Positions 26,877 through 64,000 are shown, numbered from the stretch's first letter. The stretch: 64,000 bases of DNA from a virus (IMGVR_UViG_3300037067_018912:64001-128000), one strand, 5' to 3'. Notes: generated from the sequence alone by a model not told the origin. Program-made: numbers and translations.

Positions 26877-26892
26877 AATTTTAATGTTTTAT

Positions 26893-26900
26893 ATAAATAC
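26893..26900 (-). promoter_or_regulatory. putative late promoter GTATTTAT
   Basis: 16 nt upstream of the GTG at 26876. Confidence 0.6.
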
Positions 26901-32619: not shown

Positions 32620-32635
32620 TATGAAAGAATTTATT

Positions 32636-32643
32636 ATAAATAC
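32636..32643 (-). promoter_or_regulatory. putative late promoter GTATTTAT heading the baseplate operon
   Basis: 16 nt upstream of the ATG at 32619, just after a terminator. Confidence 0.6.
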
Positions 32644-36608: not shown

Positions 36609-36650
36609 ATCCGATAACTTATAAAATATTATAATTTTTAGTAATTAATT

Positions 36651-36658
36651 ATAAATAC
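36651..36658 (-). promoter_or_regulatory. putative late promoter GTATTTAT
   Basis: upstream of the GT4 gene, after a terminator. Confidence 0.55.
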
Positions 36659-37937: not shown

Positions 37938-37951
37938 TTTGATATTTTCAT

Positions 37952-37959
37952 ATAAATAC
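37952..37959 (-). promoter_or_regulatory. putative late promoter GTATTTAT
   Basis: 14 nt upstream of the ATG at 37937. Confidence 0.6.
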
Positions 37960-37961
37960 AA

Positions 37962-40900
37962 TCAAATTAATTTTTGAATTTCCTCCTTAATGGTATTCAA
38001 AAGTTTGGATTCCGTCAACGCCAAATTACCCTTATCAGCAAAATAAATATTGAATCTCACATTTTCGGGAATCTGATTTTTGATAGCATTATACGCCTCT
38101 AATTCAACATCCCGGTCTTCATAGACATTGATTTCTTGGATATCTGGAAATTCTTTCAAATAATTCAAGACTTTCTGCCCCTTGTCGAGATCGTCGTCCC
38201 CATTTTTCATATCAAGCCTATCAACATGAACACCACCCCTTTTCAATATCTCTTCAACTTGAGGGCGCAACTTCTCGATCCTCGACGTTAGAATGAGGAC
38301 ATATGTACCCGGTGTCGACTTCTCCTTTTGATATTGGTTGTAGATACCGGGAAATGGTTTGATATCAAAAATATCCAAATCCAAACTTTCAGGTTTACTC
38401 CACCATCCGATATGAGGGTATTTCTCACCCGTTTTTTCAGTCCATTCTTGCTTCCCGACCTCTGGATGTGGTGAATTCATCAACGTACCATCGAAATCAA
38501 ATATTGCAAGCCTTTTCACCCCCCTTGGTGTGTTCTGTGGGGTTTCAATCAGTTGGTTCTCAACTTCCTCAATCTTCCCCGTTACTTTAAATCGAAATCC
38601 AAGTGGTTTCCAATCCGTCAATTCTTTGGACATGGCTGGTTTTCCACCCGCTTCTTTATTGATCGCCAATGTTATATGAGGTTTTGTACTTTCGCTCGGA
38701 TACCCGGTAACACCAACAGCCATCACCAAATCATTCAATGCATAATCGACAATATTGAGTGTGATTGTTTTACTCCCTTTCATATCCAAATATTCTTTCG
38801 AATTGGGATCAAGTTCATCGAGCCTTATTGTCATGTGATGTGCAACAACCTCCCATCCTTCGGGGATCATGGCCTTGAAAACTTTCAATAACTGTTTTCT
38901 CGATTCCTTGTCAAGTATCACCCCGGTGTATGAAACCCTTTTCATTGGAGGTCTCTCTTCAACACCTTCATTCAGGACCTCCCTATCAGTCAACATCCAA
39001 CGTAATTCGTTCTTTAATCTTTCATCATTTACCAAATCGGGGAACTCGTCTTCCAAAAATCTCAACACAGATTCTTTTGACGGATCGTGAAACCTACCCC
39101 CGGCGTTCCATTGGTCGTATTTGTCGATGAATTGATCAAGATTCAACGATTTCACCCCTTCTTGAATATCGGCGATGTCTCTCTTAACATCAACACCTTT
39201 GTTCTGCTGTGCGAATTTCATCAATTCCTGCTTGTCGTTTCTTAATTTATCGGCATATATTTTCAAAAGTATGCTTTTAAGCATATCGCCAATCTCGCTG
39301 CCTTTAAATCCCAATGTCATTAAATCATTTCCGTTCACAGTCAATTCGCCAAGAGTCTTCGGGTATTTTCCCTGCACCAACTCTCGTGCTGCATTCTCGA
39401 TATTTTCGGGCAATATCGTACTTTGAAAAGTCTGTGGGGACAAGACGTACACATTATGAGCAATCGCTCTCGCCTTGACAGGATTGGATTCCTGCGAACC
39501 ATTGTAGGCGGTGTCAAGTGCCTTAATCTCCTTGTATGTGTTGATGTCGCCTCTCAGATTATTTTTGTAATATCCTGCAGGGTTCGGATTGAGGTGGATT
39601 AATAGAAATATAAACTCACCCATCGTCTTCACATCCTCGAAAGGACTCCTATCAATTGTTGATTGTTTAATGTCAAACCCAAAAATATTTTGGAAGAGTC
39701 CTGTATTTTTCAATAATTGCGCACCCATACGCTTATTGCCTTTTTTGACAATCTTATCGAATTCAATAAGAACCCTTTCAGCCGGAATTTCTTTTATTCT
39801 ACCTGCATTGGTTTGGATCATTTTCATCGTTTCTGGCTCAATTGTGAACCCAAAACGTGCTGCAAATTGAACCGCACGAAGCATTCTCAACGGATCATCA
39901 CTGAACGCCTTGGGATTGACGATGCGGATTATCTTGTTTTTTAAATCCTCCCGTCCGCCATAAGGATCGACTATATTACCCTCACTGTCTTTTGCAATAG
40001 AGTTGATAGTGAAATCCCTTCGTTCCAAATCCTTTTCGATTGGCAAGGCATGATCCGAAGTCACGCTGAATCCATGATAGCCGCCTTCTCCCGTCGGTGT
40101 TTCAGTTCTTGGTATAGCGACATCGACCTCCTCGCCACCTCTCGGTTTGAATTTCAATATACCGAAAGATTTTCCAACGGCGTTAACCACACCGTACTTT
40201 GAAAGGATTTTTTCAAGTTCATCGAAGGGAATTCCCGTAACAAGAATATCCAAATCCTTACTTTCTTTGCCAAGGAATTCATCCCGGACAGCACCACCGA
40301 CAGAATATATCTTTCCACCCACCGCTTCAACGTCATTTTTGAACGGCAGGTCAGTCAATGACGTCGACACCGCCTCGTTCAACGATTTTGGCAATCTGTA
40401 CATTGATTCAGATGTTTGATAATCAGCGTGAGTTCCCTTGTTGGGAACAAATCCATACGATTTATACCATTTCTTCAATCTCTCTTTGCTTGCACCCCAA
40501 ACATTATCCGGTGTTAATGTTAATATTTTATTGTTTTTGTCGGCGAAATCAATCAAGAGTCTCATCGCTTTATCGGCGAATCCACGTCCCCTAAATTCCC
40601 TGTGGATGATGATTTTATTTAAAGTAAGGTATTGGTTCTTCCTATCGGTGAGTTCCATCTCACCCACAATTTCACCGTCGTTAATAATATTATGTACGTT
40701 CCATCCACCCCCGGTGCTACTTGCAGGCAAATTTACGGTTAGTTCCTCTTGTACCCCACCATTTTCATTCACGGCATACGCTAATTGAGGTAATTCAATC
40801 ACTCCATACCGTCTGTTGAGATATTTTAGAATAGATTCGTCCGTATAATCCAATAATTTCCCGATCTCATACCCTTCTTCCGGTGTCATGTCTGCCGTAT

Positions 40901-42485
40901 AACCCCCGTGAGTTTTCATAATGTCGTGCAGCCTGTTCGCCTGATTCTCATAGCCTTTCCTGTAAACAAGGACGGGTTCAAAACTTGCAGGATGATTCGT
41001 TTGCTGTATCGGTATAATACCAAATCCTGCTTCTTTAACTCTGTCACGGAGCATGCGCCCACCAGTCAATCCGAAATTAATGAAACCAACATTTTTGTCA
41101 CCCGCAATCATCGAGTCAACGGTTTTTTCGTCCGAAAAACCCTCACTTGCATCAACCTCTTCTTTCAACGATCCATTTTCTTCCGCACCAATTTTTTCCG
41201 CCTTTATTATTTCAATAATATTGGGGTTATATATTATATAATGTTTTCTGTTATTGGGTTTTTCTATTATTTGACCGTCATAACCCAATCCTACCATTGC
41301 CCGTACAAATTCCTTGGGGTAATACCTAAAAAAATCATACCATACTTGTTGAAACAAATCTTTTTCATTCTTGGAATATTTAAAAAACGAATCGATGGCC
41401 GCATATAATCCCTTTTCAGGATTTTCTGACCAATTAGTCGCACTGTCCTCCCAAGTCGGAGACATTTTGATCAAATTCACCAATTCTTTTGGAGAAACTT
41501 TTCTGTGGGACGATTCGTCAAGTAACTTTCTTGGTGACAATCTTACTGTATGCATATAACCGCCATGACCGCCATACATCCATGCATCATCATAGTCGTT
41601 TGTAAAATAAATGCCAGGTCCTTCTTGATCCGTGGCTTTTTCAGCACCCACAAACTCATCGGTGAAACTATCAATTTTATTTGGAGAACCATGAAAGGCC
41701 AAAATACCACCTTCTTCAAAAGTTGTAATCGATTCGCCAATTGGTTTGATATCAAGATTGCTTATGTCGCCCTGGTTGCAAGCGGCACTTGTATTCCCCA
41801 TACCTCCGAGTCTGCATTTCTTCTTGACGCTGACGGCACTGCTGCCGGGCATATAGGATTGTAATCTCTCGTTTAAATTCTCACGGGTTAATTCTTCAAG
41901 CACCTGCCGGATTGTCTTAATATGAAAATCACGGTCTTCTTCTTTCAAGAACCCAATAACAGTAAACATTTGTTGCAACGCATCCACTGGGTTTATAAGA
42001 ACAAATTCCTTATATTTGAAACCTTCCTTACGAATGTAATTGATTATGTCTTTCAACGCCTTAATGAAACCCGCTTTGTCGCCGTTATTAAATGCGTTTT
42101 CCATTGCAGGGAAATAATCGTTCAACACTTCGCCTGCAATCCTTTTTGCGAGATCGATTTGTTCGTTAACATCACCCTCCCTCGGAACAGCATGTTTTAT
42201 TATCCTGGTAAGATAATAATCAATCCCTTCCGCCTCGGTCATAATGAACCTGTCTTTGGTAGCATCACCAACATGGTTATATTCCAAATCCTCGCTCAAA
42301 TTCTCTTGCGGTGGAAATTCATCTTGTCCAACAGCAGAATCGGTTGAGAATTTCGAAGACCCGTCTTCATCAACTGTATTGGGGGTCACGGCGGTCATTC
42401 CGTTTCTTATATCAGCACCACCGCCGATATCCGAAAGAATATCGTCATTGCCGTCGGCGTTGAATAATTCATGTAATTCATCCAT
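37962..42485 (-). CDS. cca: polyvalent multidomain protein: ADP-ribosyltransferase, GNAT, CCA-adding nucleotidyltransferase, 2H phosphodiesterase, HAD phosphatase
   Basis: AFHGS..GPGIYFT..GYDG (ART); FRGRGFA..WYKSYGF (GNAT); VGGAVRD..DLD..RRDFTIN..DDPLRMLR (class II CCA NTase); HMTI/HITL (2H); FDFDGTL..YEDR (HAD). Confidence 0.88.
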   Translation of the reverse strand: MDELHELFNADGNDDILSDIGGGADIRNGMTAVTPNTVDEDGSSKFSTDSAVGQDEFPPQENLSEDLEYNHVGDATKDRFIMTEAEGIDYYLTRIIKHAVPREGDVNEQIDLAKRIAGEVLNDYFPAMENAFNNGDKAGFIKALKDIINYIRKEGFKYKEFVLINPVDALQQMFTVIGFLKEEDRDFHIKTIRQVLEELTRENLNERLQSYMPGSSAVSVKKKCRLGGMGNTSAACNQGDISNLDIKPIGESITTFEEGGILAFHGSPNKIDSFTDEFVGAEKATDQEGPGIYFTNDYDDAWMYGGHGGYMHTVRLSPRKLLDESSHRKVSPKELVNLIKMSPTWEDSATNWSENPEKGLYAAIDSFFKYSKNEKDLFQQVWYDFFRYYPKEFVRAMVGLGYDGQIIEKPNNRKHYIIYNPNIIEIIKAEKIGAEENGSLKEEVDASEGFSDEKTVDSMIAGDKNVGFINFGLTGGRMLRDRVKEAGFGIIPIQQTNHPASFEPVLVYRKGYENQANRLHDIMKTHGGYTADMTPEEGYEIGKLLDYTDESILKYLNRRYGVIELPQLAYAVNENGGVQEELTVNLPASSTGGGWNVHNIINDGEIVGEMELTDRKNQYLTLNKIIIHREFRGRGFADKAMRLLIDFADKNNKILTLTPDNVWGASKERLKKWYKSYGFVPNKGTHADYQTSESMYRLPKSLNEAVSTSLTDLPFKNDVEAVGGKIYSVGGAVRDEFLGKESKDLDILVTGIPFDELEKILSKYGVVNAVGKSFGILKFKPRGGEEVDVAIPRTETPTGEGGYHGFSVTSDHALPIEKDLERRDFTINSIAKDSEGNIVDPYGGREDLKNKIIRIVNPKAFSDDPLRMLRAVQFAARFGFTIEPETMKMIQTNAGRIKEIPAERVLIEFDKIVKKGNKRMGAQLLKNTGLFQNIFGFDIKQSTIDRSPFEDVKTMGEFIFLLIHLNPNPAGYYKNNLRGDINTYKEIKALDTAYNGSQESNPVKARAIAHNVYVLSPQTFQSTILPENIENAARELVQGKYPKTLGELTVNGNDLMTLGFKGSEIGDMLKSILLKIYADKLRNDKQELMKFAQQNKGVDVKRDIADIQEGVKSLNLDQFIDKYDQWNAGGRFHDPSKESVLRFLEDEFPDLVNDERLKNELRWMLTDREVLNEGVEERPPMKRVSYTGVILDKESRKQLLKVFKAMIPEGWEVVAHHMTIRLDELDPNSKEYLDMKGSKTITLNIVDYALNDLVMAVGVTGYPSESTKPHITLAINKEAGGKPAMSKELTDWKPLGFRFKVTGKIEEVENQLIETPQNTPRGVKRLAIFDFDGTLMNSPHPEVGKQEWTEKTGEKYPHIGWWSKPESLDLDIFDIKPFPGIYNQYQKEKSTPGTYVLILTSRIEKLRPQVEEILKRGGVHVDRLDMKNGDDDLDKGQKVLNYLKEFPDIQEINVYEDRDVELEAYNAIKNQIPENVRFNIYFADKGNLALTESKLLNTIKEEIQKLI

Positions 42486-42487
42486 TG

Positions 42488-43102
42488 TTACTTCTTATTG
42501 TAATGTTTATCATATATGTCATTGGTCAACCCATAATCAACCAAAACAGCCGTAGGCTTACCATTCCGGAGAATCTCACCATAAGTATTTATACAACTCA
42601 AATCCCCAAAATGAATATCATATTTAAAAACAAATTCTTCAAATTTTATGATGAAATTATCCCCATTCATATTATTTTCGATATTGACGGGCAATAAATG
42701 TCTCTTCTCGTTTCCCCTTCGTACTTCACCACAATTCACCAAATAAAAATAAACATCTTTCAACTTAAACCCTGTCAACTCCTTGAATTTTTTCAAGGTA
42801 ACCCTTCCGGCTTTTTCTGCAACCACCCAATCCTTGCAATCATTACTGTCAAGAACGTTGGCAAGAAATTCAAACCTCCTGTCCGTCCACCGGGGCAGGA
42901 AAGACGCCTCCACCGCATTTTGCATGAGACCTTCTTGGTTCACTGCCAATTTAAAAATTTTGGCGTCGTCGAATTCATACACGAATCTACCTGATCCACG
43001 GGCGATCTTCTTTAAACGTTTGTTACAATATTCAATCCTTTTTACAAAAGTATCGATTCCATTCAAACCTTCCAAAAAATTTGAAAATTCAATTTGTGTC
43101 AT
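42488..43102 (-). CDS. protein kinase-like protein
   Basis: IARGSGRFVY, IFKLA, N..E, GDL..NTYG, LVDYG. Confidence 0.7.
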   Translation of the reverse strand: MTQIEFSNFLEGLNGIDTFVKRIEYCNKRLKKIARGSGRFVYEFDDAKIFKLAVNQEGLMQNAVEASFLPRWTDRRFEFLANVLDSNDCKDWVVAEKAGRVTLKKFKELTGFKLKDVYFYLVNCGEVRRGNEKRHLLPVNIENNMNGDNFIIKFEEFVFKYDIHFGDLSCINTYGEILRNGKPTAVLVDYGLTNDIYDKHYNKK

Positions 43103-43127: not shown

Positions 43128-43135
43128 ATAAATAC
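43128..43135 (-). promoter_or_regulatory. putative late promoter GTATTTAT for the kinase + polyprotein operon
   Basis: 25 nt upstream of the ATG at 43102. Confidence 0.55.
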
Positions 43136-43163
43136 ATGAAAAAGGGGATAAAAAAAGCGCAAC

Positions 43164-43838
43164 TTACTGTTGCGCTTTCGCCTTGGTTTTGGCTTGTATT
43201 TCTCTGATCACTTCGACGACCACGCCTTTTATCAGTTCCCTGTTCTCTCGCAGGACTTCCTTTATTCTCTCGACAGCGTACATTTCGATTATTGTACTGT
43301 TGATGGCTTCTTCAAGCACCGGACCGAGGTTTTCAACCAAATGATTGTTGACTATTTTTTTGACGCTCTCTGCCAAGTACGCTTCATTCAGCATGGGTTG
43401 CTGATATACGTTCTCGTTCAAAGGTACGGTTGCTGGTTTGTGTCCTTGAGAAGGGTTTATATAATTCTGCATTGATTCCGCAAGCGTGCTCTTCTTTCTT
43501 TTTTCAAGGTCACGGTATAAATCCTCATCCCTTTCAGGAGACATTTCAACAGGACCGGGTTTTTCAATAGGTTTGCGTGCAACCTGCGTTTCAGATATAA
43601 CATGTCTTGGAGTTTCACCTGCTTTCAACGAAGCCTTATTGTCAACAGTTTTTATCAAATTCGTTGACACGGTATCTTTGCCAGTCTTTATTGCTTCCAC
43701 CAACCCGTGCAAAAATGCATCTTTCGGTGCTAAATTTGGACCAACACTTTCTCCAAAAGCCGATTGAGTCATATTTTTCTCTCTCTTGCTTTTCTCAATC
43801 TCGTTTTTTATTTTGCTTATATCGAAATTCTTTGCCAT
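43164..43838 (-). CDS. hypothetical protein, possible prohead core/scaffold-like
   Basis: several LAES/LNE/ISE motifs; helical C-terminus. Confidence 0.6.
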   Translation of the reverse strand: MAKNFDISKIKNEIEKSKREKNMTQSAFGESVGPNLAPKDAFLHGLVEAIKTGKDTVSTNLIKTVDNKASLKAGETPRHVISETQVARKPIEKPGPVEMSPERDEDLYRDLEKRKKSTLAESMQNYINPSQGHKPATVPLNENVYQQPMLNEAYLAESVKKIVNNHLVENLGPVLEEAINSTIIEMYAVERIKEVLRENRELIKGVVVEVIREIQAKTKAKAQQ

Positions 43839-43861
43839 TTTATAAAAATTTATACTTTTTT

Positions 43862-43869
43862 ATAAATAC
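43862..43869 (-). promoter_or_regulatory. putative late promoter GTATTTAT
   Basis: 23 nt upstream of the ATG at 43838. Confidence 0.6.
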
Positions 43870-45064: not shown

Positions 45065-45850
45065 TTAATCGTATTTTTTAAACGTCAATGTAATGTATTC
45101 AATCAAATGCGGTACTGTGTCGAGATATTCCATCTCCTCAACGCTGAACCACCCATATTTCGTATTTTCTTTCTGATCAAGTGCAATATCGGCAGTGTCA
45201 CCATTGAACCTGCAAGCAAAAATATGCTCGATACTATCTGAATGCCTTTGAATGCTGAATGTCTTGATGAATTTTTTTATGTCGAGATCGGTTTCTTCTT
45301 TAATCTCCCTTTTAACGGCCTCTTCTGGGGATTCTCCTTTTTCAATACCGCCGCCGACCAACGCCCATTTATTGGGCATCCAATATTCCTTATGATCCGC
45401 ACGTTTTAAAAGAAGAATTTTATTGTCATCGTTCACAATTATTGCAACCGCATTTTTCTTCAATTCCTTCTTGTCTTTCTTTTTTTCCTCATTCAACACA
45501 GGTGTTTGCGAAGGCTGCAATTCCAAATTTGGATTGACATTTGCATCTTGTGTGACTTTTTTCGCTTGTGCAACAGCATTCCTATCTGTTGCAAGGGAAG
45601 TCTCAATGAATGATTTCATCAAATCACCCCCGGCAAGTGCATACTGCATCTTGTTGTTAACCTGTTGATCAAAATGATCGAAAAAGTTCTTCAACCTCTT
45701 CATGTCCTGATAGGTTATACTGCCGTTTTTTAAGAGGAATTTGGCTCTTTTAACGCCTTCACCCCCCGGAGTGGATACCAAGGTCGCCTGGATGTATTTC
45801 AGCACGTCAGGTGGAATCCTGTACGTTTTATCGTATAATTCCGAGTTCAT
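45065..45850 (-). CDS. NUDIX hydrolase with an N-terminal extension
   Basis: Nudix box GGGIEKGESPEEAVKREIKEETDL. Confidence 0.9.
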   Translation of the reverse strand: MNSELYDKTYRIPPDVLKYIQATLVSTPGGEGVKRAKFLLKNGSITYQDMKRLKNFFDHFDQQVNNKMQYALAGGDLMKSFIETSLATDRNAVAQAKKVTQDANVNPNLELQPSQTPVLNEEKKKDKKELKKNAVAIIVNDDNKILLLKRADHKEYWMPNKWALVGGGIEKGESPEEAVKREIKEETDLDIKKFIKTFSIQRHSDSIEHIFACRFNGDTADIALDQKENTKYGWFSVEEMEYLDTVPHLIEYITLTFKKYD

Positions 45851-45853
45851 CAA

Positions 45854-46672: not shown

Positions 46673-46688
46673 GATGATGCATTTTCAT

Positions 46689-46696
46689 ATAAATAC
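46689..46696 (-). promoter_or_regulatory. putative late promoter GTATTTAT
   Basis: 16 nt upstream of the ATG at 46672. Confidence 0.6.
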
Positions 46697-55152: not shown

Positions 55153-58100
55153 TTAACAAATCTTTTTCACCCTAATTGTTGCACAACATATCGTACCATT
55201 GGTGCTTTGTGTGCAGAAATAGAAATTAAAGCAATGGCTTCCCGCAGAAAGTGTCAAATCTTTCGTGAATTGATCTGCACGGTAATAACCGATCATATTA
55301 CACCCACCAAGTGTTGCTACCGGAGTTCCATCAACATTATATGTCACATAAATATATCTATTACCCGTAGAATTTGCAAATATTGACATCATATCCATCT
55401 GATACCTTCCCGCAGTAAAAGTTGAAGCAGTATACCCATAATAATATGTTGGTGTTGTTGTTGCAATTGTACATACCGTATTGGTTTCAGCATAATGGTA
55501 ATTATCACTGCCGCCAGTCAATAAGATTGCTTTGACTTGCTTATCAGTAGGATTCCAAAATAATGTACGATCAGTTGAAATACTACCTATTGAAGGTGTT
55601 GAAACAAGACAAAGCGTATTTCCAACTGTGGTAACACCACTCGCATTAAATGTTGAAGCAGCAGTTGTTGCACCAACCAATCTTGTTGTACCTACCGAAC
55701 ACAAACATGTGCTGCCATAAACCGTCGAACCCGATACCAAACCTGCGGCAAGGAAGTCTCCGCTTGTTCTTAACGTACCTGTCATTGTGTCGCCACTCAC
55801 ATTCACCTTCGTTAAATCACGAGGATGGACGTGATCTTGACGGCTGTACCTCAATGATGTACCCACTACCGTCAATCCATTCATCAATGGTGTCGCCGTA
55901 CCCGCTTGGCCAACGACAAACGCCGTTGTTGCAAACTGAGTCGTATTGGTATCGGCTACCGCCGTCAAACCATACACAGCACCTGTGAACGTATCCCCCG
56001 TCAAATCGGCCTTACCATCAAGGATTGTCTTCGTGACACCCGTGTAAGTATTGAATTGTGTTCTTCCAATATAATTAGCCGGAAGTGTTGTGCCTGTGAA
56101 CGTGGCAAATGCCGTCTTATCGAGTTTTGTCCCTATTAAAGTGTTTGTAACACCCGTATAGGCATTGATTTCAGTCTTATTATAATAGTTCGCCGGAACT
56201 GTCGTTCCAGAATAGGTATTAAAATCACTTACCGCAAGTCTGCTTGTATCGCTCGGATGAACATGATCTTGACGACTGTATTTTAACGACGTGCCGACTG
56301 CTGCCAATCCGTTCATCAACGGTATTGCTGTTCCAACCTGGCAAGAAGTAATAAATGCTGTTGTTGCAATACAAGTGTTGTTTGAATCCGCAACAGGTGT
56401 TGGAGCACATGCACTCGTCAAAAACGTTGGACTTGTAATCGGTGCTTTCGTATCAATCAAAGACTTTGTCGCCGCACTATAAACATTGATTTCAGTCTTG
56501 TTATAATAGTTTGCCGGAACTGTTGTACCGCTGTAAGTATTGAACGCACTTATGTCGAGTTTCGTCCCTATAAGAGTGTTTGTAGCACCCGTATAGGCAT
56601 TGATTTCAGTCTTGTTATAATAATTCGCCGGAACTGTTGTACCGCTATAAGTGTTGAATGCACTTACCGCAAGTCTGCTTGTATCACTCGGATGAACATG
56701 ATCCTGACGTGCATATCTCAACGATGTCCCAATAGCCACCGCACCGTTCATCAAAGGATTGGTGTTGGCAGCCTGGCCGAGAACGAACGCCGTTGTTGCA
56801 ACCCTTGTAGTGTTGGTATCGGCGGGAGCGGTGGTTGTGTAGATCGCCCCCGTGAAAGTATCCCCCGTCAAATCGGCCTTGCCATCAAGTGCCGTCTTTG
56901 TAACACCAGTATAAACATTGAAATTGCCAATGTTCACATATGTTGCAGGTGCTGTCGTCCCAGTGTATGTTACAAACACCGTGGTTGGCAGTTTGGCATC
57001 TATCGAGGTCTTCGTCGTACCACTGTAAGAATTAAAATTGACGATCTTTAAATAGGTCGCAGGGATTGTCGTGCCCGAATAGGTGTTGAATGCGGTTATC
57101 GACAATTTGGTATTCGTAACCCCCGAAATATAATCAATATCACCATCAATACCATTCAGTCTCGTATTTGTCGCACCACTGTAAGAATTAAAATTAGTGA
57201 TAGCCAGATAAGTCGCCGGGACTGTCGTACCTGAATAAGTATTAAATGCAGTTATACTGAGTTTCAATGCATCCGCATCGTCGACATATTTCTTATCAAC
57301 AAGATCGGTGGTTGTTGTGAATGTTGGATGGGATTGGTAATGTTGTATGCCCGTCAAATTCCTCGTACCATCAGTCCTCAGATATTGCGGATGATCGTCA
57401 TTCAAAAGGCCGCTTAAATCACCGTGGTTCGAAATACCACCACCACCACCAACCTGACCACCTATCTGATAAGAGAATGGCAATGGCCTGATATCATATA
57501 TCTCACCACCGAATGTTGTTGATCCTGCCGAATACACCACATATGCCATGTTTATCGCAGTAGTGTCAAACGGCGGCACTTTGCCTGGCAGACCTCCTGC
57601 TATTGCTTCCTCCTTAGTGCTGTAGTACGTCTGTGGCAAATAGAATGCCAATTGACCGCTCGTTGTTCTAAGCACGATCGCCTTCACCCATTTCCCGGAA
57701 GGTATGTTCTTCGTTGCTAAACTGACAACCGCCGTGTGACCCGTGCCCCCTGCACCAAAATACGGTATTGCCAAGGTCAATGTAGTCCCCGTGCCATCCC
57801 ATGTATGACCAGTGACAAGTGTCTCATATTGATATGGTGCAACACCATCGAAAGCATCGTATATGCGGAAGGTATCGCCTGTCGGCAGCACGCTTCTCAC
57901 ATCATCAGGACTTGTAACGATATTGCTGCCATATGTAAAATTGAAAGTATATGCGGTCAATATCAATCCCGATGGTTGGGTAGGATCGTTGTAATATGTG
58001 GTAGGGATGCTCGCATCCCCCGTATAGAATGACTTGTTAATATAATAAAAATCAGCATTAACTCCTTGATCAGGACTATTGTATGCAACAAGCGTCGTCA

Positions 58101-61100
58101 ATCCACTGATGTCAGCAAGAGTAGTACCAACTTGTGGCAAATCGACCGACATCAACCCCATCTGTATCTTGCATGGGGTACTGGTAATCATTGTTGTATT
58201 AGCACTTAATTGTTGAATGCTACCGCCATTATCGTATATGAAAATCCCAAGCCTTTTCAAATATTCGGAAGTCCTGGAAACCGCATTCTCAATAACACCA
58301 CCATCTTGTTTAATGTTACCGATTTGCACCGCCCAATAGAACGTACCTAATCTAATATTTTGAATGTTATTCGGCTCGGATATTGCCACCTGTATATCAC
58401 CATTAGAATTTACGTAGACATAGTAAGTCCCAACATCGTCCGGTGTGGTATATCCACTGGTATTGATTGTTTGACCGCTCCAAGTTATTAATTTGTGAAA
58501 TCCATCGTATGTAATATATCCATTACCAGGATAAATATACAGCAAATTCAAGTCAATTTGTGCAAGTGCCGTTTCAGGTGAAAGCCTGCCGGAGATTTGC
58601 GTTCTTTCAATATAATTAGCGACTTTTTGGTTAAAATCATCAACAGTCGTGCTTTCCCAATCGGGAATACTGATATTAACATCAATTGCATTACGTGTTG
58701 CAAGATCAGCCAATGAACTACCGACCTTACTTACTTTCGTCCAAGGTATTGTGCCCCCGGTGTATGCTGCAAACACCGCCGTTGGAAGTTTGGTGTCGGT
58801 GACACCGGAAATGTAATCAATATCGTCTTCAACACCATCAAGTCTTGTCTCTGTTGAAGCGGTGTAATTTACAAATGTTGCGATTTCTACATGTTCTATG
58901 TTCGTACCACCAGAATCCAAAATAAATTGGTATAGATTGTAACCATTTATTGAAGTACCTGTTGGTATTACAGGAGTTCCCGTGAACATGGGACTTTCAA
59001 GGAAGGCGAATGTTTTCCTCGTGCTTCCTGTCGTAGTGCCGTACCAATTATTACCGAGAAATTCCATTGCTCCCGGTTGTGGTGAACCCAACAACGATCC
59101 GCTTGTGAATTTCAACGGGGAAACAGTTGTTGTACCTGCTTTTAGGTGAACCACCGCCGTCGGTGAAGAAATTCCAAATCCTGTTCCAAGGTCTGAAATC
59201 CTGACCTTTTCCGTTGGAGCAGAACCACTTGATGTCTTGAACAACATATCTGCATAACAAGTCGTGCTGTTGCCTTTGTATATTACGTCAAGCGATGCCA
59301 ACGACGTGCCGACCGTCCCACCGCCACAGCACACCCTTGTTCTGAAGCATAAATGACCAAGAGAATCACCCGAACAGGAAGCCAATGGCGCATCCAATGT
59401 TCCTCTTGTTTTTGCAGCCACATACCCGCCACCAATAGCATCGTTGGACGACGCTCTCACTCTTATTTGGGCGGTAGCACTACAATTAGAATCGACTTCG
59501 AATAAACTGAAACTCTGACCTGCTGTCAAATCGACATAATTCGATTCATTCACCTGCAATTGATTGCATCCAGACATGTTACCGCCGCCGATGTTAGTCC
59601 TGCCGAGACTGTCGATGTAGAAATTCGGTCTTGCATCGAATTGTGAAGAATATACTCCAAACCTCTTATCACCGCCACGGACAACCGTATTTAAAGTTGG
59701 TATCACCGACGGCAGGCTTGACGTCCTCATCCTCACCCAATATAATTCCTTTTGTTGAAGTTCATCAGGCAGCACTGATAATATCCAATCATTTATTTGG
59801 GTATTATCCCAATAGATCGCACCCGATCTTGTCAAATCTACCGTTGAATCGTAATAATAATCACTTCCTTCCGTGATCTCGACCCAAGACGAACCATCGA
59901 AATATTCGATGATTAATATAGTATCCTGACTTGGAATTATTATATTGATTTGAACTGAATTGAATTTAGTGTATCCACCTATATACAATGCCCCCAACGT
60001 ATCCCCAGTGTTAAATATTTGAATAGGGTAGTTGGAATCCGACAGACTCGCCCTAACGGTGAGGTCTTCATACCCAATCACACCCGCCGTATAATCGGAA
60101 GTTTTTAAAATAGCATCAAACTGAGCGGGTGCTACAATCAACGTACCTGATGGAAGTTGAGGGAATGCATTGAAACTCCAAGTATCACCGGAAGTGTGCC
60201 CTGTTGTGTAATCAAATTTGACCTGCACACCATTCTCAATAAGAGTTAAACCTGTCGAACACCCGGTTGGTTGAGACCAACTGTTGAAAGTGACTCCCAA
60301 ATCCTTAGAAACCCTCCAAACGAATGTATCGGTCGTTCCCGTTACACCCGATATTCGGATTTCATAATTGGAGATAAATGTCTTATCATATATACCGTCG
60401 ACATACAGGTCGTTAAGTCCTGTGCCGATTATTTTGTTGGCATAGAATGAAAAATAATTCGACGGCGAGTTTACCCCGACCCTTCCACTCTCGGAAGCCA
60501 CGATTGGCGTCGTATTGCCCGCCATGTTGTATAAGTACCAAAATTCAGCATTCTCACCCCTAAATGTTTCTGCAAACCATTTTGGTTCACCATTTTCAAG
60601 CCACACCACATCCTTGTCAGCACCCGTAGGACCATCAACATTCAAACCATTGGCCTGTGTGTTGTAACCACCATCATCAAGTAAATCAGTTCCATAAAGA
60701 TGAATTTGTTTTACCGGATTAGTAATACCAATTCCAGTAAAACCACTTATGGTATTGATCGTTATGATTGGTGTGATACCATCCGCCTTATTAATCGTTA
60801 TTGCGGACGCTGTCCCCCCAAACGGCCTGATCTCATTGACCACAATACCACCATTGAAACTGCTTTCAACAGTCGTTGAAGCACCCACTTCCGTGACCTC
60901 TTGCAAATCCGGAACGGTGATATCGCAAGTATATGCGAATTCCCGCCTCGTGCCGCCAGTCGTCGTACCATAAAACTTGTCCCCTTGAAACTCTACAGCA
61001 CCTGATTCGGGTGTCGCCAGCAACAACCCGCTCGTGAATTTCAACGGAGCGGTGTTGGCTGCAGTTGTACCTGATTGCAAATGAACAAGTGCTGTTGGAA

Positions 61101-64000
61101 CAATTCCTCCAAAGCCAACACCTGCACCGCTCACCCTTATCTTTTCGACTTGGACAAGGTTTTGACCATTTGCCACTGCGAAGCGCAAATCACCATAATA
61201 CGTGCTGCCGTCACCGATATATTTTGAAATTATTTTTGCTGTGACAAAACCACAACCGTTTATAGGAGAACCCCATGTTATACAACCCATGTTGTCATCA
61301 TATTGGGGATTGACTGCACCGCTCAAAGTACCTCTTGATTTCGTCAGCAAAAGTGCCGGACCACAAGCATCATCACTTGCCTGTCTCAATTTGAGTAAAA
61401 GTGCAATACTACTATCCTCGTTGTCGAATTCCACAAGGCTTGAAGCACCTGAATATACTTGATAATTCTTGTTAGTATTTACTTGCAGTACATTACGACC
61501 CGTAAGATTACCACCACCTATGCTCGTCCTTCCCAAGGCATCAACATAGAATGATGGTCTGTAATCCATTGCTGACGCATACACTGCAAACCTCATGTTG
61601 CTGCCACGGGATACCCCGCCGATCAAAGGCGTTACCGTAGATGGACTTGCCGTCCTGATTCTTACCCAATAATACTCCCCTTCTCCCGGCATTTCCAAAG
61701 GCTCTGCATACGTCCAATTCGTCAAAGCATTCGTGTTCCAAGTCAAATATCCGGTTTGAGTTAAATTATTGGTAGTATCATTAAAATAACCGCTACTTGT
61801 GCCGATGTTTTCCCACGAATTTCCATCCCAATACTCTCCGACAAGGGTTATTCCTTCGCCCCCCTGAATGACATTAATAAACAATGAATTGAGTTTCGTG
61901 TTTGTGCCAATATACGCAGCATTTGTCGTTACACCCGTCTCAAACATCGGAGTTGGGACATCCACAACTGAAGTATTCACTTCAGCAGTGAAATCGGAAA
62001 ACGTCACCGCACTTGCAGTATAATCCAAAGTAGCCAATACCTTATTAACCCGGTTTCCGGTCACAGTAAACGTGGAAGGTGCTAATTGAGGAAACGTTGC
62101 GAACCTCCAAGCATCACCAACAACAAATCCGGTGATTTGGACGAATGACACCTCAACTCCACTATCAATTATTGTTGCACCTGTCGTACAACCTGTCGGT
62201 GTCGACCAAGCGGTATATGTGTTATTCAAATCACTGGACACCCTCCATTGATAAGTATCTGTTACACCAGTAGTGCTGTCGATCCTCACCTCGTAAATAG
62301 CGATGTAACTCTTGTCATACAACCCGCCGATCACAAGTCCATTATTATATGGCGTGCTGCCGACAGATTGAGCAGGATAATCGATTATATTCGACGGACT
62401 GTTAACACCAATTCTGCCACTTTCTGAAATAGTGAGTGGTGACAAATCACCCTCACTATTATACAAATACCAAAATTTTCCTTCTTCACCCCTGTAAATC
62501 TCGGCAAACCATTTCTCAGCACCATCGTCCCGCCATACAACATCCTTGTCGCCATCAGCAACACCATCAATGATAATACCGTTTTTATGTGTTGAAATAT
62601 AACTACCATTGGAATTATCAACCCCGTATATGTGAATGATATTGTCGGGTTCAACCGTTCCAAACCCGGTCAAACCACTTGTTGTGTTGATTGTTATAAT
62701 CGGCGTGACACCATCGGCTTTGTTAATTGTTATAGCCGATGCAGTTCCTCCAGACGGCCTGATCTCATTAACAACAAGACCCCCATTAAAACATGTTTCA
62801 ACGGTTGTCACCGCCCCTATCTCAGTAACTGTTTGCAAATTAATTGCATTGGTATCACACATGAAAGCGAATCTCTGCCTTGTACCGCCAGTCGTAGTCC
62901 CATAAAATTTCTCACCTTGGAACTCTACAGCACCCGCTTGGGGTGTTGTTAATAATGTCCCACTCGTGAACTTCAAAGGGGCGTTGGTTGTAGTGCCGGA
63001 CTTCAAATGAACAAGTGCCGTTGGTGTTGAAACCCCAAACCCAGTATCACCTTTATAGTCAATTCTAACCCTTTCCAACGGATCAGAGCCGTTTGCTGTT
63101 TTAAAGAAAATATCACCACATCTTGCTGTCGGAGCACCTGTGAATTGCGAATTGATCTCCGCCAACAGGCGTCCTGATGTCCCAGACCTGCCCCTGAAAC
63201 TGATGCGTCCGAGAAGGTCGCCCGTTTGCGTGCAGGATGATGCATCAAGCGTGCCACGGGTCTTGACAAACGTCAACCCTGGAGCACATGCGTCGTTCGA
63301 TGCAAGTTTTATTTTCAGATCAACAACGTTGCTGTCCTCGCTGTCGAATTCAACAAGACTGTCAGTGCCTGTGGTAGTCACTTGGACATTATTCCCAGTG
63401 TTGACTTGCAATTTATTGCTTCCTGTGATATTCCCGCCGCCGACGTTTATCCTCCCCAACGCATCCACATAAAATGCAGGTTTGTAATCGAACGCCGAAG
63501 CATATATCGAGAATCTTTGAGAACTACCTCTGGAAACACTACCAATATACGGTGCTATTGTTGGAGGACTTGACGTCCTAAATCTCAACCAATATAACAA
63601 TTCACCGCTGTTCCTCCCATCATAAGGAATCCACCCTGTCATTGTATCGACGTTCCATGTGATCGCACCAGATTGGGACACATTGTTCGTGCCGTCAAGG
63701 AAAAATTCATTCCCAATTGAAATGTCGACCCATGAAGTGCCGTTCCAATATTCAACAACCAATGTCATTCCGACACCGGGGGTTGGAATATTAAGAAACA
63801 ATGAATTAAGTTTCGTCACAGTACCAACGTATGCGGCGTTCAAGGTTGTCCCTGTTTGGAATAATTGAAGTGGAGAATCTATAGTTGATGAGTTCGCAAC
63901 CCCCGTTATATCAACACCCACAATGTATTGTGGTGGATATGTTGTGTAATTAGTGGTGTATATCACCCTGTCCACACGGTTTCCAGTGACGGACAACGTC
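55153..64000 (-). CDS. giant tail fibre/adhesin, >2,947 aa, start lies beyond the window
   Basis: frame is open past 63996; GxGxxxPxxxLH fibre motifs, ~642-aa repeats, FNTYSGTT and RQDHVHP repeats. Confidence 0.85.
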   Translation of the reverse strand, partial: TLSVTGNRVDRVIYTTNYTTYPPQYIVGVDITGVANSSTIDSPLQLFQTGTTLNAAYVGTVTKLNSLFLNIPTPGVGMTLVVEYWNGTSWVDISIGNEFFLDGTNNVSQSGAITWNVDTMTGWIPYDGRNSGELLYWLRFRTSSPPTIAPYIGSVSRGSSQRFSIYASAFDYKPAFYVDALGRINVGGGNITGSNKLQVNTGNNVQVTTTGTDSLVEFDSEDSNVVDLKIKLASNDACAPGLTFVKTRGTLDASSCTQTGDLLGRISFRGRSGTSGRLLAEINSQFTGAPTARCGDIFFKTANGSDPLERVRIDYKGDTGFGVSTPTALVHLKSGTTTNAPLKFTSGTLLTTPQAGAVEFQGEKFYGTTTGGTRQRFAFMCDTNAINLQTVTEIGAVTTVETCFNGGLVVNEIRPSGGTASAITINKADGVTPIITINTTSGLTGFGTVEPDNIIHIYGVDNSNGSYISTHKNGIIIDGVADGDKDVVWRDDGAEKWFAEIYRGEEGKFWYLYNSEGDLSPLTISESGRIGVNSPSNIIDYPAQSVGSTPYNNGLVIGGLYDKSYIAIYEVRIDSTTGVTDTYQWRVSSDLNNTYTAWSTPTGCTTGATIIDSGVEVSFVQITGFVVGDAWRFATFPQLAPSTFTVTGNRVNKVLATLDYTASAVTFSDFTAEVNTSVVDVPTPMFETGVTTNAAYIGTNTKLNSLFINVIQGGEGITLVGEYWDGNSWENIGTSSGYFNDTTNNLTQTGYLTWNTNALTNWTYAEPLEMPGEGEYYWVRIRTASPSTVTPLIGGVSRGSNMRFAVYASAMDYRPSFYVDALGRTSIGGGNLTGRNVLQVNTNKNYQVYSGASSLVEFDNEDSSIALLLKLRQASDDACGPALLLTKSRGTLSGAVNPQYDDNMGCITWGSPINGCGFVTAKIISKYIGDGSTYYGDLRFAVANGQNLVQVEKIRVSGAGVGFGGIVPTALVHLQSGTTAANTAPLKFTSGLLLATPESGAVEFQGDKFYGTTTGGTRREFAYTCDITVPDLQEVTEVGASTTVESSFNGGIVVNEIRPFGGTASAITINKADGITPIITINTISGFTGIGITNPVKQIHLYGTDLLDDGGYNTQANGLNVDGPTGADKDVVWLENGEPKWFAETFRGENAEFWYLYNMAGNTTPIVASESGRVGVNSPSNYFSFYANKIIGTGLNDLYVDGIYDKTFISNYEIRISGVTGTTDTFVWRVSKDLGVTFNSWSQPTGCSTGLTLIENGVQVKFDYTTGHTSGDTWSFNAFPQLPSGTLIVAPAQFDAILKTSDYTAGVIGYEDLTVRASLSDSNYPIQIFNTGDTLGALYIGGYTKFNSVQINIIIPSQDTILIIEYFDGSSWVEITEGSDYYYDSTVDLTRSGAIYWDNTQINDWILSVLPDELQQKELYWVRMRTSSLPSVIPTLNTVVRGGDKRFGVYSSQFDARPNFYIDSLGRTNIGGGNMSGCNQLQVNESNYVDLTAGQSFSLFEVDSNCSATAQIRVRASSNDAIGGGYVAAKTRGTLDAPLASCSGDSLGHLCFRTRVCCGGGTVGTSLASLDVIYKGNSTTCYADMLFKTSSGSAPTEKVRISDLGTGFGISSPTAVVHLKAGTTTVSPLKFTSGSLLGSPQPGAMEFLGNNWYGTTTGSTRKTFAFLESPMFTGTPVIPTGTSINGYNLYQFILDSGGTNIEHVEIATFVNYTASTETRLDGVEDDIDYISGVTDTKLPTAVFAAYTGGTIPWTKVSKVGSSLADLATRNAIDVNISIPDWESTTVDDFNQKVANYIERTQISGRLSPETALAQIDLNLLYIYPGNGYITYDGFHKLITWSGQTINTSGYTTPDDVGTYYVYVNSNGDIQVAISEPNNIQNIRLGTFYWAVQIGNIKQDGGVIENAVSRTSEYLKRLGIFIYDNGGSIQQLSANTTMITSTPCKIQMGLMSVDLPQVGTTLADISGLTTLVAYNSPDQGVNADFYYINKSFYTGDASIPTTYYNDPTQPSGLILTAYTFNFTYGSNIVTSPDDVRSVLPTGDTFRIYDAFDGVAPYQYETLVTGHTWDGTGTTLTLAIPYFGAGGTGHTAVVSLATKNIPSGKWVKAIVLRTTSGQLAFYLPQTYYSTKEEAIAGGLPGKVPPFDTTAINMAYVVYSAGSTTFGGEIYDIRPLPFSYQIGGQVGGGGGISNHGDLSGLLNDDHPQYLRTDGTRNLTGIQHYQSHPTFTTTTDLVDKKYVDDADALKLSITAFNTYSGTTVPATYLAITNFNSYSGATNTRLNGIDGDIDYISGVTNTKLSITAFNTYSGTTIPATYLKIVNFNSYSGTTKTSIDAKLPTTVFVTYTGTTAPATYVNIGNFNVYTGVTKTALDGKADLTGDTFTGAIYTTTAPADTNTTRVATTAFVLGQAANTNPLMNGAVAIGTSLRYARQDHVHPSDTSRLAVSAFNTYSGTTVPANYYNKTEINAYTGATNTLIGTKLDISAFNTYSGTTVPANYYNKTEINVYSAATKSLIDTKAPITSPTFLTSACAPTPVADSNNTCIATTAFITSCQVGTAIPLMNGLAAVGTSLKYSRQDHVHPSDTSRLAVSDFNTYSGTTVPANYYNKTEINAYTGVTNTLIGTKLDKTAFATFTGTTLPANYIGRTQFNTYTGVTKTILDGKADLTGDTFTGAVYGLTAVADTNTTQFATTAFVVGQAGTATPLMNGLTVVGTSLRYSRQDHVHPRDLTKVNVSGDTMTGTLRTSGDFLAAGLVSGSTVYGSTCLCSVGTTRLVGATTAASTFNASGVTTVGNTLCLVSTPSIGSISTDRTLFWNPTDKQVKAILLTGGSDNYHYAETNTVCTIATTTPTYYYGYTASTFTAGRYQMDMMSIFANSTGNRYIYVTYNVDGTPVATLGGCNMIGYYRADQFTKDLTLSAGSHCFNFYFCTQSTNGTICCATIRVKKIC
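55820..57270. repeat. short coding repeats in the fibre stalk
   Basis: 56141-56274 and 56576-56709 are near-identical (435 nt offset); KADLTGDTFTGA x2; RQDHVHP x3. Confidence 0.8.
58990..64000. repeat. ~1,926-1,929 nt (642-643 aa) tandem domain repeats in the fibre, about 2.6 copies visible
   Basis: equivalent positions at 63993, 62067 and 60138. Confidence 0.8.

Follow-up and report, generated by a model that had tools for sequence, protein, structure and literature searches.

Does the product of a phage gene that strings several enzymes together act as one chain, or is it a precursor that is cut into separate effectors? This question is raised by a polyprotein gene (P0001, as is its product below) on the minus strand of IMGVR_UViG_3300037067_018912:64001-128000, a stretch of 64,000 nucleotides of viral DNA (the window) that is part of an IMG/VR virus record of 357,275 bp with direct terminal repeats, rated 100% complete. 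An earlier note on this DNA, made from the sequence alone, had reported prohead-protease-type [LIV]-x-E sites in the linkers between the domains of P0001. This observation is confirmed, and the family as a whole bears it out much more strongly than P0001 alone. The best-supported mechanism is that P0001 would be a cargo polyprotein packaged in the head and diced by the prohead protease. We give this reading a probability of about 0.6; its cleavage, packaging, injection and timing are what we infer. All coordinates are those of the window unless the genome is named.

Domain joints in P0001 and its family

Domain assignment of P0001 was based on Pfam and PHROGs matches, together with motif reading and AlphaFold models. 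The layout of the protein is given below with window coordinates and strand.

37962..42485 (-): polyprotein gene P0001, 1507 amino acids (open reading frame (ORF) listing, translation and domain hits)
42468..42485 (-): N-terminal leader MDELHE, residues 1-6, ending in the LHE joint (sequence comparison)
42234..42467 (-): three short acidic disordered linker modules, residues 7-40, 41-65 and 66-84, ending in VDE, LSE and MTE
41868..42233 (-): helical domain without assignment, residues 85-206, ending in LNE 204-206
41733..41867 (-): basic module of 45 amino acids, residues 207-251, motif KKKCRLGG..ACNQGD, ending in IGE 249-251
41160..41732 (-): ART-PolyVal ADP-ribosyltransferase (ART) module, residues 252-442, ending in LKE 440-442 (Pfam/PHROGs)
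40746..41159 (-): alpha/beta domain without assignment, residues 443-580, ending in VQE 578-580 (model)
40374..40745 (-): GNAT acetyltransferase, residues 581-704, RGRGF at 632, ending in LNE 702-704
39159..40373 (-): CCA-adding/poly(A) polymerase-family nucleotidyltransferase, residues 705-1109, ending in IQE 1107-1109
38967..39158 (-): small helical domain without assignment, residues 1110-1173, ending in LNE 1171-1173
38565..38966 (-): 2H phosphoesterase, residues 1174-1307, ending in IEE 1305-1307
37965..38564 (-): putative HAD phosphatase, 'Swiss Army Knife' RNA-repair type, residues 1308-1507, DFDGT at 1330

The ART, GNAT, CCA, 2H and HAD domains claimed in the earlier note are borne out by Pfam/PHROGs matches and active-site motifs, HAD as a probable assignment. 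Matches to Pfam and PHROGs placed ART-PolyVal at residues ~246-430, GNAT at ~597-707, a CCA/poly(A)-polymerase-family nucleotidyltransferase at 725-1092 and HAD at 1355-1477, the last just under threshold. ART-PolyVal (PF18760) scored 31.5 bits against a cut-off of 31.2, that is, barely above it, and PHROG 25279 matched with E = 3.9e-32 over residues 246-430. The nucleotidyltransferase matched PF01743 (E = 5.7e-22) and PF12627 (E = 8.6e-15), with GGAVRD at 730 and DLD at 744; by its sequence it is assigned to the class II CCA-adding/poly(A) polymerase nucleotidyltransferase family, within which CCA addition and poly(A) addition are not separable by sequence. The 2H domain shows two H-x-T motifs (HMTI at 1217 and HITL at 1270) and a confident beta-rich model at 1183-1310; PF13563 occurs there in homologues, and P0001 itself has no Pfam match in this region at E <= 0.1. 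The HAD region scored 22.2 bits to PF10307 (HAD_SAK_1), under the cut-off of 25.6, and matched PHROG 415 (polynucleotide kinase) with E = 1.5e-7; its model is of low confidence. This region has LIE 1312-1314 in the linker ahead of it and LTE 1490-1492 ahead of its terminal helix. A protein-atlas search with the domain at 443-580 yielded only unnamed clusters with scores < 0.8. Pfam and PHROGs showed no peptidase family in P0001, and the precomputed Pfam annotation of 120 homologues includes none either. The basic module at residues 207-251 (..VKKKCRLGG.GNTS.ACNQGDI.NL..) is the most conserved piece of the family, with two near-invariant cysteines and a small beta-hairpin in the model.

All ten [LIV]xE sites cited in the earlier note lie where it had put them on the minus-strand ORF 37962-42485:

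41868-41876 (-): LNE, residues 204-206
41733-41741 (-): IGE, residues 249-251
41160-41168 (-): LKE, residues 440-442
40764-40772 (-): VNE, residues 572-574
40746-40754 (-): VQE, residues 578-580
40374-40382 (-): LNE, residues 702-704
39159-39167 (-): IQE, residues 1107-1109
38967-38975 (-): LNE, residues 1171-1173
38544-38552 (-): LIE, residues 1312-1314
38010-38018 (-): LTE, residues 1490-1492

In the protein as a whole the motif is in weak excess, with 37 occurrences of [LIV]xE against 27.4 expected from composition. Its placement was compared with linkers, defined as segments of low predicted local distance difference test score (pLDDT) plus the ends of hidden Markov model matches, with a tolerance of 3 residues. 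AlphaFold models were made of the two halves of the protein on family alignments A2 and A1, with a mean pLDDT of 57.6 for the N-terminal half and 76.5 for the C-terminal half; the first 82 residues are disordered by prediction. Four short low-confidence linkers part the confident domains of the C-terminal half (701-707, 1110-1113, 1170-1182 and 1311-1321), and the motif lies in or touches each of them. Together with the three cleaner linkers of the N-terminal half, seven linkers were tested. All seven inter-domain linkers contain the motif, with nine motifs in linkers against 3.0 expected (permutation p = 2.9e-4), and none of 20000 sequence shuffles reached seven of seven. The linker enrichment proposed in the earlier note is thus seen, and its caution that so short a pattern also occurs inside domains was well placed: about 25 of the 37 motifs are intradomain.

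Analysis of relatives revealed a much stronger signal. A search of 5.8 billion proteins yielded 166 relatives with lengths of 900-2500 residues; many of them are encoded on contigs of 200-366 kb. The family is built round the CCA core, and the partners vary (ART-PolyVal, GNAT, 2H, tRNA-ligase-type CPD, Nudix, ParB and a kinase-like domain). In four sequences that were read, short conserved linker modules stand between variable domains, and each ends in [LIVM]xE exactly at the break of homology. P0002, which is 86% identical, lacks the ART precisely past ..NLDIKPMNE/ (a slash after Glu marks a joint here and below) and has an extra domain inserted between VNE/ and ISE/A. A relative with the order 2H-CCA-HAD again has joints of this kind (VSE/, LNE/A and LNE/S).

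To count these breaks, the 120 available members were compared with one another by all-against-all BLASTP (51,072 alignments), and internal alignment ends and starts were scored against several patterns; ends were scored on the last residue of the pattern and starts on the first:

[LIVM]xE: 20.4% of ends, 16.7% of starts, background 2.5%
[LIVM]xD: 2.3% of ends, 1.5% of starts, background 2.1%
[AGS]xE: 1.5% of ends, 0.9% of starts, background 1.4%
[LIVM]xK: 2.1% of ends, 1.9% of starts, background 2.5%

The enrichment of [LIVM]xE is 8.2-fold for ends and 6.7-fold for starts and is limited to that single position. The controls [LIVM]xQ and [FYW]xE are also at background, and Asp at P1 is enriched 1.1-fold at alignment ends. 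Among 20 representatives that pairwise have at most half of their residues in common, the pattern accounts for 17% of ends and 15% of starts, or 11% and 10% when distinct positions are counted. Domain shuffling at the motif sites, which the earlier note had named as a check in relatives, is found across the 120 homologues, with breakpoints falling on the Glu of [LIVM]xE. An artefact of BLAST in Glu-rich linkers was considered and rejected, since enrichment is 3.4-fold with any residue at the first position, 8.2-fold with an aliphatic residue and ~1-1.6-fold with a charged, small or aromatic residue. Shuffling through microhomology at DNA level was likewise rejected, because tripeptides and codons differ at homologous joints; first-residue codons at the joints across relatives are TTG, TTA, CTG, CTT, ATA, ATT and GTA.

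At the sites starting at residues 4, 204, 249, 440, 702, 1171 and 1305, 80-98% of aligned homologues retain the pattern, with varying tripeptides and a flank identity of only 0.28-0.43. At residue 249 the tripeptide varies among homologues (INE, LKE, VNE, IDE, IKE and LTE). Glu at positions 6, 40, 704 and 1173 is invariant or nearly so in alignments A1/A2 despite varying linkers, and Glu 704 is invariant in A1. The site IQE 1107 had appeared unconserved (7% in BLAST alignments); this was rejected as an alignment slip, since all 21 homologues with both anchors, YADK and YD.WN, have the motif at the equivalent place, mostly followed by Gly, as IQE, LNE, VEE, IEE, MQE, MKE and others. At VQE 578-580 the pattern is 61% conserved. 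Among the ten sites listed in the earlier note, those at 204, 249, 440, 702, 1107 and 1171 thus hold up, 578 does so in part and VNE 572 is unconserved; LIE 1312 and LTE 1490 are covered by few homologues. Further conserved joints beyond these ten are LHE 4-6, MTE 82-84, at which 48 alignments stop exactly, and IEE 1305-1307, at which many homologues end; VDE 38-40 and LSE 63-65 are partly conserved. The low-pLDDT linkers and the family-wide conservation at breakpoints identify the joints as accessible L/I-x-E sites under selection.

Prohead protease, leader-like sequences and transcription unit

The genome encodes a Peptidase_S77 prohead protease (PF03420, 67.7 bits; genome 227212-227913). 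In an alignment with T4 gp21 it shows 29% identity, and the catalytic His and Ser motifs of gp21 (NHP and SSRG) are matched by DHP and SSRG. The protease gene adjoins the gene of a 548-residue scaffold and a gp23-type capsid gene, and an HK97-type protease was not found in the genome. All 13 near-complete genomes that bear the polyprotein family have an S77 protease. T4 gp21 cleaves after L/I-X-E with few other determinants, and Asp at the position of Glu blocks processing (PMC9026906, sections 2.5 and 2.6). The negative result with Asp in our breakpoint statistics matches this block. A candidate maturation cut is seen in the capsid proteins of the clade: M[IL]NE/[SA] at residues 58-60, immediately before the part alignable to mature T4 gp23, is conserved even in a member that is 59% identical. 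Scaffolds of the clade keep S[IV][LI]xE/A near the N-terminus and have further such sites. At loci L119/L122 (G014), L120 (G007) and L121 (G015) the S77 domain lies inside ORFs of 571-653 amino acids and its match falls in two pieces, which suggests an inserted or fused segment in these three related genomes.

Comparison of N-termini revealed leader-like sequences in the family. A start of the form MT[YF]x[ED]F is present in 57 of 120 members, and 41 of these 57 have [LIVM]xE ending at residue 13; the leader reads MTYDEFKQNFLPE..., with the consensus MT[YF]x[ED]F...LPE/. As read directly from the T4 genes, IPIII and IPII begin with MKTYQEFIAE/A and IPI begins with MKTFKEF...ITE/A. In the T4 leader, residues 4 and 7 are targeting determinants and residues 8 and 10 are processing determinants (PMC9026906, section 2.6). 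P0001 begins with MDELHE/LFNADG and T4 Alt with MELITE/LFDEDT. These resemblances to T4 are short and were noticed after the fact, and a similarity of P0001 to T4 Alt past the first 11 residues was rejected, there being no significant sequence match.

The leader of P0001 stands next to a gene that belongs to the polyprotein in most of the family. This gene and the sequence elements around the two genes are as follows:

42488..43102 (-): kinase-like gene of 204 amino acids (GSGxG...VLKL-type motif), ending 2 nucleotides before the polyprotein start, in another frame
43128..43135 (-): promoter-like core GTATTTAT, 33 nucleotides before the start of the 204-residue gene, heading the two-gene unit
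43150..43175 (-): terminator-like hairpin GCGCAAC/GTTGCGC plus T-run, closing the preceding gene (read from sequence)
37951..37958 (-): further promoter-like copy directly past the polyprotein stop codon; the next ORF begins LYLYENIKMIDM...

Of 120 homologues, 80 have this 204-residue kinase-like protein as the N-terminal module of their polyprotein. Fused homologues join it to the rest via ..MYE/LFN.ADGNDD, which is homologous to LHE at residues 4-6 of P0001, so that LHE 4-6 would be a former internal joint. Here and in the closest relatives the kinase-like gene is split off exactly at this joint. A frameshift joining the two genes was rejected, since there is no slippery sequence, a stop in the -1 frame lies just upstream and the closest relatives are split too.

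Promoter-like copies stand before the first gene and past the second, and the transcription unit is therefore taken as the 204-residue gene plus the polyprotein; the copy at 37951..37958 probably drives the next gene, so that the polyprotein unit ends there. The core GTATTTAT occurs 102 times in the genome, 54 of them within 80 nucleotides upstream of a gene on the same strand. Its consensus is AGTATTTAT..AAA, about 22-30 nucleotides ahead of ATG. Genes preceded by the motif encode tail fibre, tail sheath, portal, large terminase, scaffold, a gp25-like baseplate wedge and a 1695-residue protein with a lysin domain. The claim in the earlier note that the operon carries a late motif is accurate in so far as this is a real sequence feature common to virion genes; its lateness we infer from the genes that it precedes. 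In the form AGTATTTAT(A/G)..AAA it comes with no obvious ribosome-binding site, and the 54 upstream copies are mostly before virion genes. Copies within the window include 43128-43135, 43861-43868, 46688-46695, 36650-36657, 32635-32642 and 26892-26899. In gene direction the motif is TATTTATA, which differs from the T4 late box TATAAATA. The ~35-nucleotide leader of a 224-residue gene at 43164-43838 (window 43839-43869, -) is near-identical to that of the portal gene (genome 236048-236079) and reads AAAGTATTTATAAAAAAGTATAAA.TTTTATAAAATGGC.

Other genes of this genome touch on the same features. The 1695-residue protein (genome 228031-233118, +, outside the window) has a C-terminal endolysin-type domain, is divergent from the protease gene, has the promoter-like motif ahead of it and is a candidate for further virion-borne cargo. 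A Nudix protein (window 45065-45853, -) has its catalytic domain directly past ..PVLNE/E, and this Nudix domain is an N-terminal module in the polyprotein homologues P0098 and P0038; because of this recurrence, the genes neighbouring the polyprotein may draw on a common stock of modules. An ORF of at least 2947 amino acids (window 55153-63996, -) runs off the window end and lies upstream of helicase and DNA polymerase genes.

Weighing of the possible readings

The part of the earlier note that concerned the sites themselves is strongly supported by the joint motif at breakpoints, the gp21-type protease and the promoter-like motif common to virion genes. Loading, cutting and injection are proposed by analogy with T4 Alt and the T4 internal proteins, and because T4-type proteases are active only inside proheads. 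The cargo would consist of protein modifiers (ART and GNAT) and a tRNA 3'-end repair line (CCA-adding enzyme, 2H phosphodiesterase and HAD phosphatase), together with three unassigned domains and four short conserved linker peptides; in most relatives it would also include the kinase-like domain, which here is a separate upstream gene. The two-gene unit would be transcribed along with the virion genes and the polyprotein built into the prohead core. The T4 gp21-type serine protease would then cleave past the Glu of [LIVM]-x-Glu at about 12 joints, releasing about eight folded modules (8-45 kDa) and several small acidic peptides. Together with the DNA the modules would exit the head, and they would act ahead of all phage gene expression, modifying host proteins and mending tRNA ends attacked by host defence nucleases.

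Several results weigh against packaging and cutting in the head. Depletion of the motif inside domains, which would be a sign of avoided cleavage, was looked for, and the ~25 internal copies are near expectation. The linker modules are in no other ORF of the 357-kb genome, and their use as a general head-targeting tag was rejected on that ground. The polyprotein gene is flanked by replication genes on one side and baseplate genes on the other, and the head module is 120 kb away. Its promoter copy at 43128..43135 is a weaker variant without the downstream A-run, and similarly weak matches to the motif lie ahead of genes for an exonuclease and a ribonucleotide reductase. In this phage the leader that resembles a capsid-targeting sequence, MTQIEFSNFLE, is degenerate and is part of the kinase-like protein, separate from P0001. 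Co-occurrence with the S77 protease may just mirror shared ancestry. Relatives of P0001 come from metagenomes only, with no cultured relative, and in GenBank phages (megablast and tblastn) matches were to the CCA domain only, the first 260 amino acids having none. Finally, CCA-2H-HAD makes functional sense as a single uncut chain.

This last point is the core of an account in which P0001 stays whole in the cytoplasm as a multi-enzyme 'Swiss Army Knife' chain for RNA repair or host modification, the motif being a feature of structure or linkers, or marking the boundaries of shuffling cassettes. The CCA, 2H and HAD activities make up a coherent pathway of repair, most homologues retain CCA, the small domain and 2H in this order, and HAD_SAK_1 stems from multidomain RNA-repair proteins without known processing; the lack of intradomain depletion and of an embedded peptidase fits as well. 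We nevertheless consider this account unlikely, since a structural linker would need neither Glu over Asp nor an aliphatic residue two positions earlier, at one exact position, and a DNA recombination signal would conserve nucleotides, whereas tripeptides and codons differ between relatives. The pattern also equals the known specificity of the protease family encoded by all these phages. In a second account the joints are real cleavage sites, but another Glu-specific protease of phage or host cleaves them in the cytoplasm and the products act, unpackaged, in the producing cell. The position of the gene outside the head module, the restriction of the linker modules to this protein in the genome and the short leader of P0001, just 6 residues, would agree with it. 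Cleavage after the Glu of L/I-x-E is, however, a hallmark of the gp21 family (PMC9026906), no other protease of such specificity was identified, the unit has the promoter-like motif of virion genes, and the N-termini of the family resemble T4 capsid-targeting leaders, all of which makes cytoplasmic cutting improbable.

A third account takes the motif for internal translation starts, with its first residue as start codon and the modules made separately. Leu, Ile, Val and Met are residues of start-like codons, alignment starts are most frequent at the first motif residue, and the second residue is often Asn or Lys, with A-rich codons. Against this, ATG, GTG or TTG is found at just 11 of 32 codons of homologous joints, a single joint uses TTG, TTA and CTG in different relatives, and alignment ends peak on Glu even more than starts do on the first residue. 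No consistent ribosome-binding site is present upstream of the joints, and on codon identity and these missing sites the account was rejected as extremely improbable.

Relation to known systems and meaning for the phages

The closest known relatives in kind are the polyvalent proteins of phages and conjugative elements (Iyer, Burroughs, Anand, de Souza, Aravind 2017, PMC5512222), whose signature domain is ART-PolyVal, often with a GNAT neighbour. For these, packaging and delivery along with the DNA were predicted, and they were likened to RNA-virus polyproteins, with release via embedded peptidases such as a zincin-like MPTase, which are frequent among them but not universal (PMC5512222). P0001 resembles them in having unrelated effector domains in one polypeptide of 1507 amino acids (ART, GNAT, CCA-adding, 2H and HAD, plus three unassigned), in its ART-PolyVal (PF18760) with GNAT (581-704) as neighbour and in the mosaic architectures of its family. 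It differs in that the family has no peptidase domain and its joints match the trans-acting prohead protease of the phage, and in that its tRNA-repair core is constant, whereas PMC5512222 has no mention of CCA-adding enzymes ('CCA' occurs 0 times). No proposal of prohead-protease joints in polyvalent-type proteins was found in the open-access literature, and a survey of jumbo phages (PMC7824862) handles RNA repair and injected polyvalent proteins as separate topics.

With T4 head cargo (Alt and IPI-III; PMC9026906) the system has in common the S77 protease family, the aliphatic-x-Glu pattern and an ART in the cargo; its short putative leaders that end in this pattern resemble those of T4. Both are of the late gene class, lateness here being judged from the genes that the motif precedes. 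T4 cargo, in contrast, consists of single-domain precursors that are trimmed at the end, whereas P0001 would be diced at about 12 internal sites into many enzymes; its ART is also of a different clade (H-Y-D type) from T4 Alt (R-S-E type). Ejection or inner-body proteins of phiKZ, 201phi2-1 and SPN3US are cut by proteases of the gp175/gp245 type (PMC9026906, section 3.2; PMC5694885). The likeness to these giant phages is in head-internal proteins that are cut after Glu, some into several fragments kept in the head, and then ejected; what is cut there, however, is mainly structural proteins or subunits of RNA polymerase, unlike the strings of shuffled enzymes described here. The proteases of these phages also differ in their P3 preference, which is for small residues (S/A/G-x-E). 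The combination of CCA nucleotidyltransferase, 2H and HAD is like that of 'Swiss Army Knife' RNA repair and multifunctional CCA-adding enzymes (HAD_SAK_1, PF10307; PMC7824862) and fits the healing of tRNA 3' ends that bear a cyclic phosphate or phosphate. Those proteins, however, are taken as intact chains, with no reported protease-type joints, ART or GNAT partners or link to virion genes.

For the uncultured T4-like jumbo phage clade as a whole, a wider proposal can be made, which we regard as tentative and slightly on the doubtful side of even. The prohead protease may serve as a universal release enzyme for cargo shuffled by recombination, so that any cassette between [LIVM]xE joints would automatically enter the head, be set free and be injected. 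The acidic and basic linker peptides may act as prohead-core handles, and the constant tRNA 3'-end repair line may pre-empt defences that cut tRNA. Such a line would, if this is true, be the first virion-borne RNA-repair system.

If P0001 is cut in the head, it would represent a polyprotein strategy in a DNA phage, in which one late gene supplies a swappable kit of enzymes that act before phage gene expression and are released in trans, the capsid protease taking the place of an embedded peptidase. Joints that match the capsid maturation site of a phage would provide a simple rule by which the head cargo of uncultured jumbo phages could be predicted from sequence. The T4 capsid-targeting sequence has reportedly been used already to load foreign proteins into capsids, and the conserved leaders and joints of this family could be a natural design for loading them into large capsids. 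The range of injected phage proteins would, if the mechanism is true, extend from ARTs and RNA polymerases to tRNA-repair enzymes, and this would bear on how phages escape nucleases that attack the anticodon and the CCA end.

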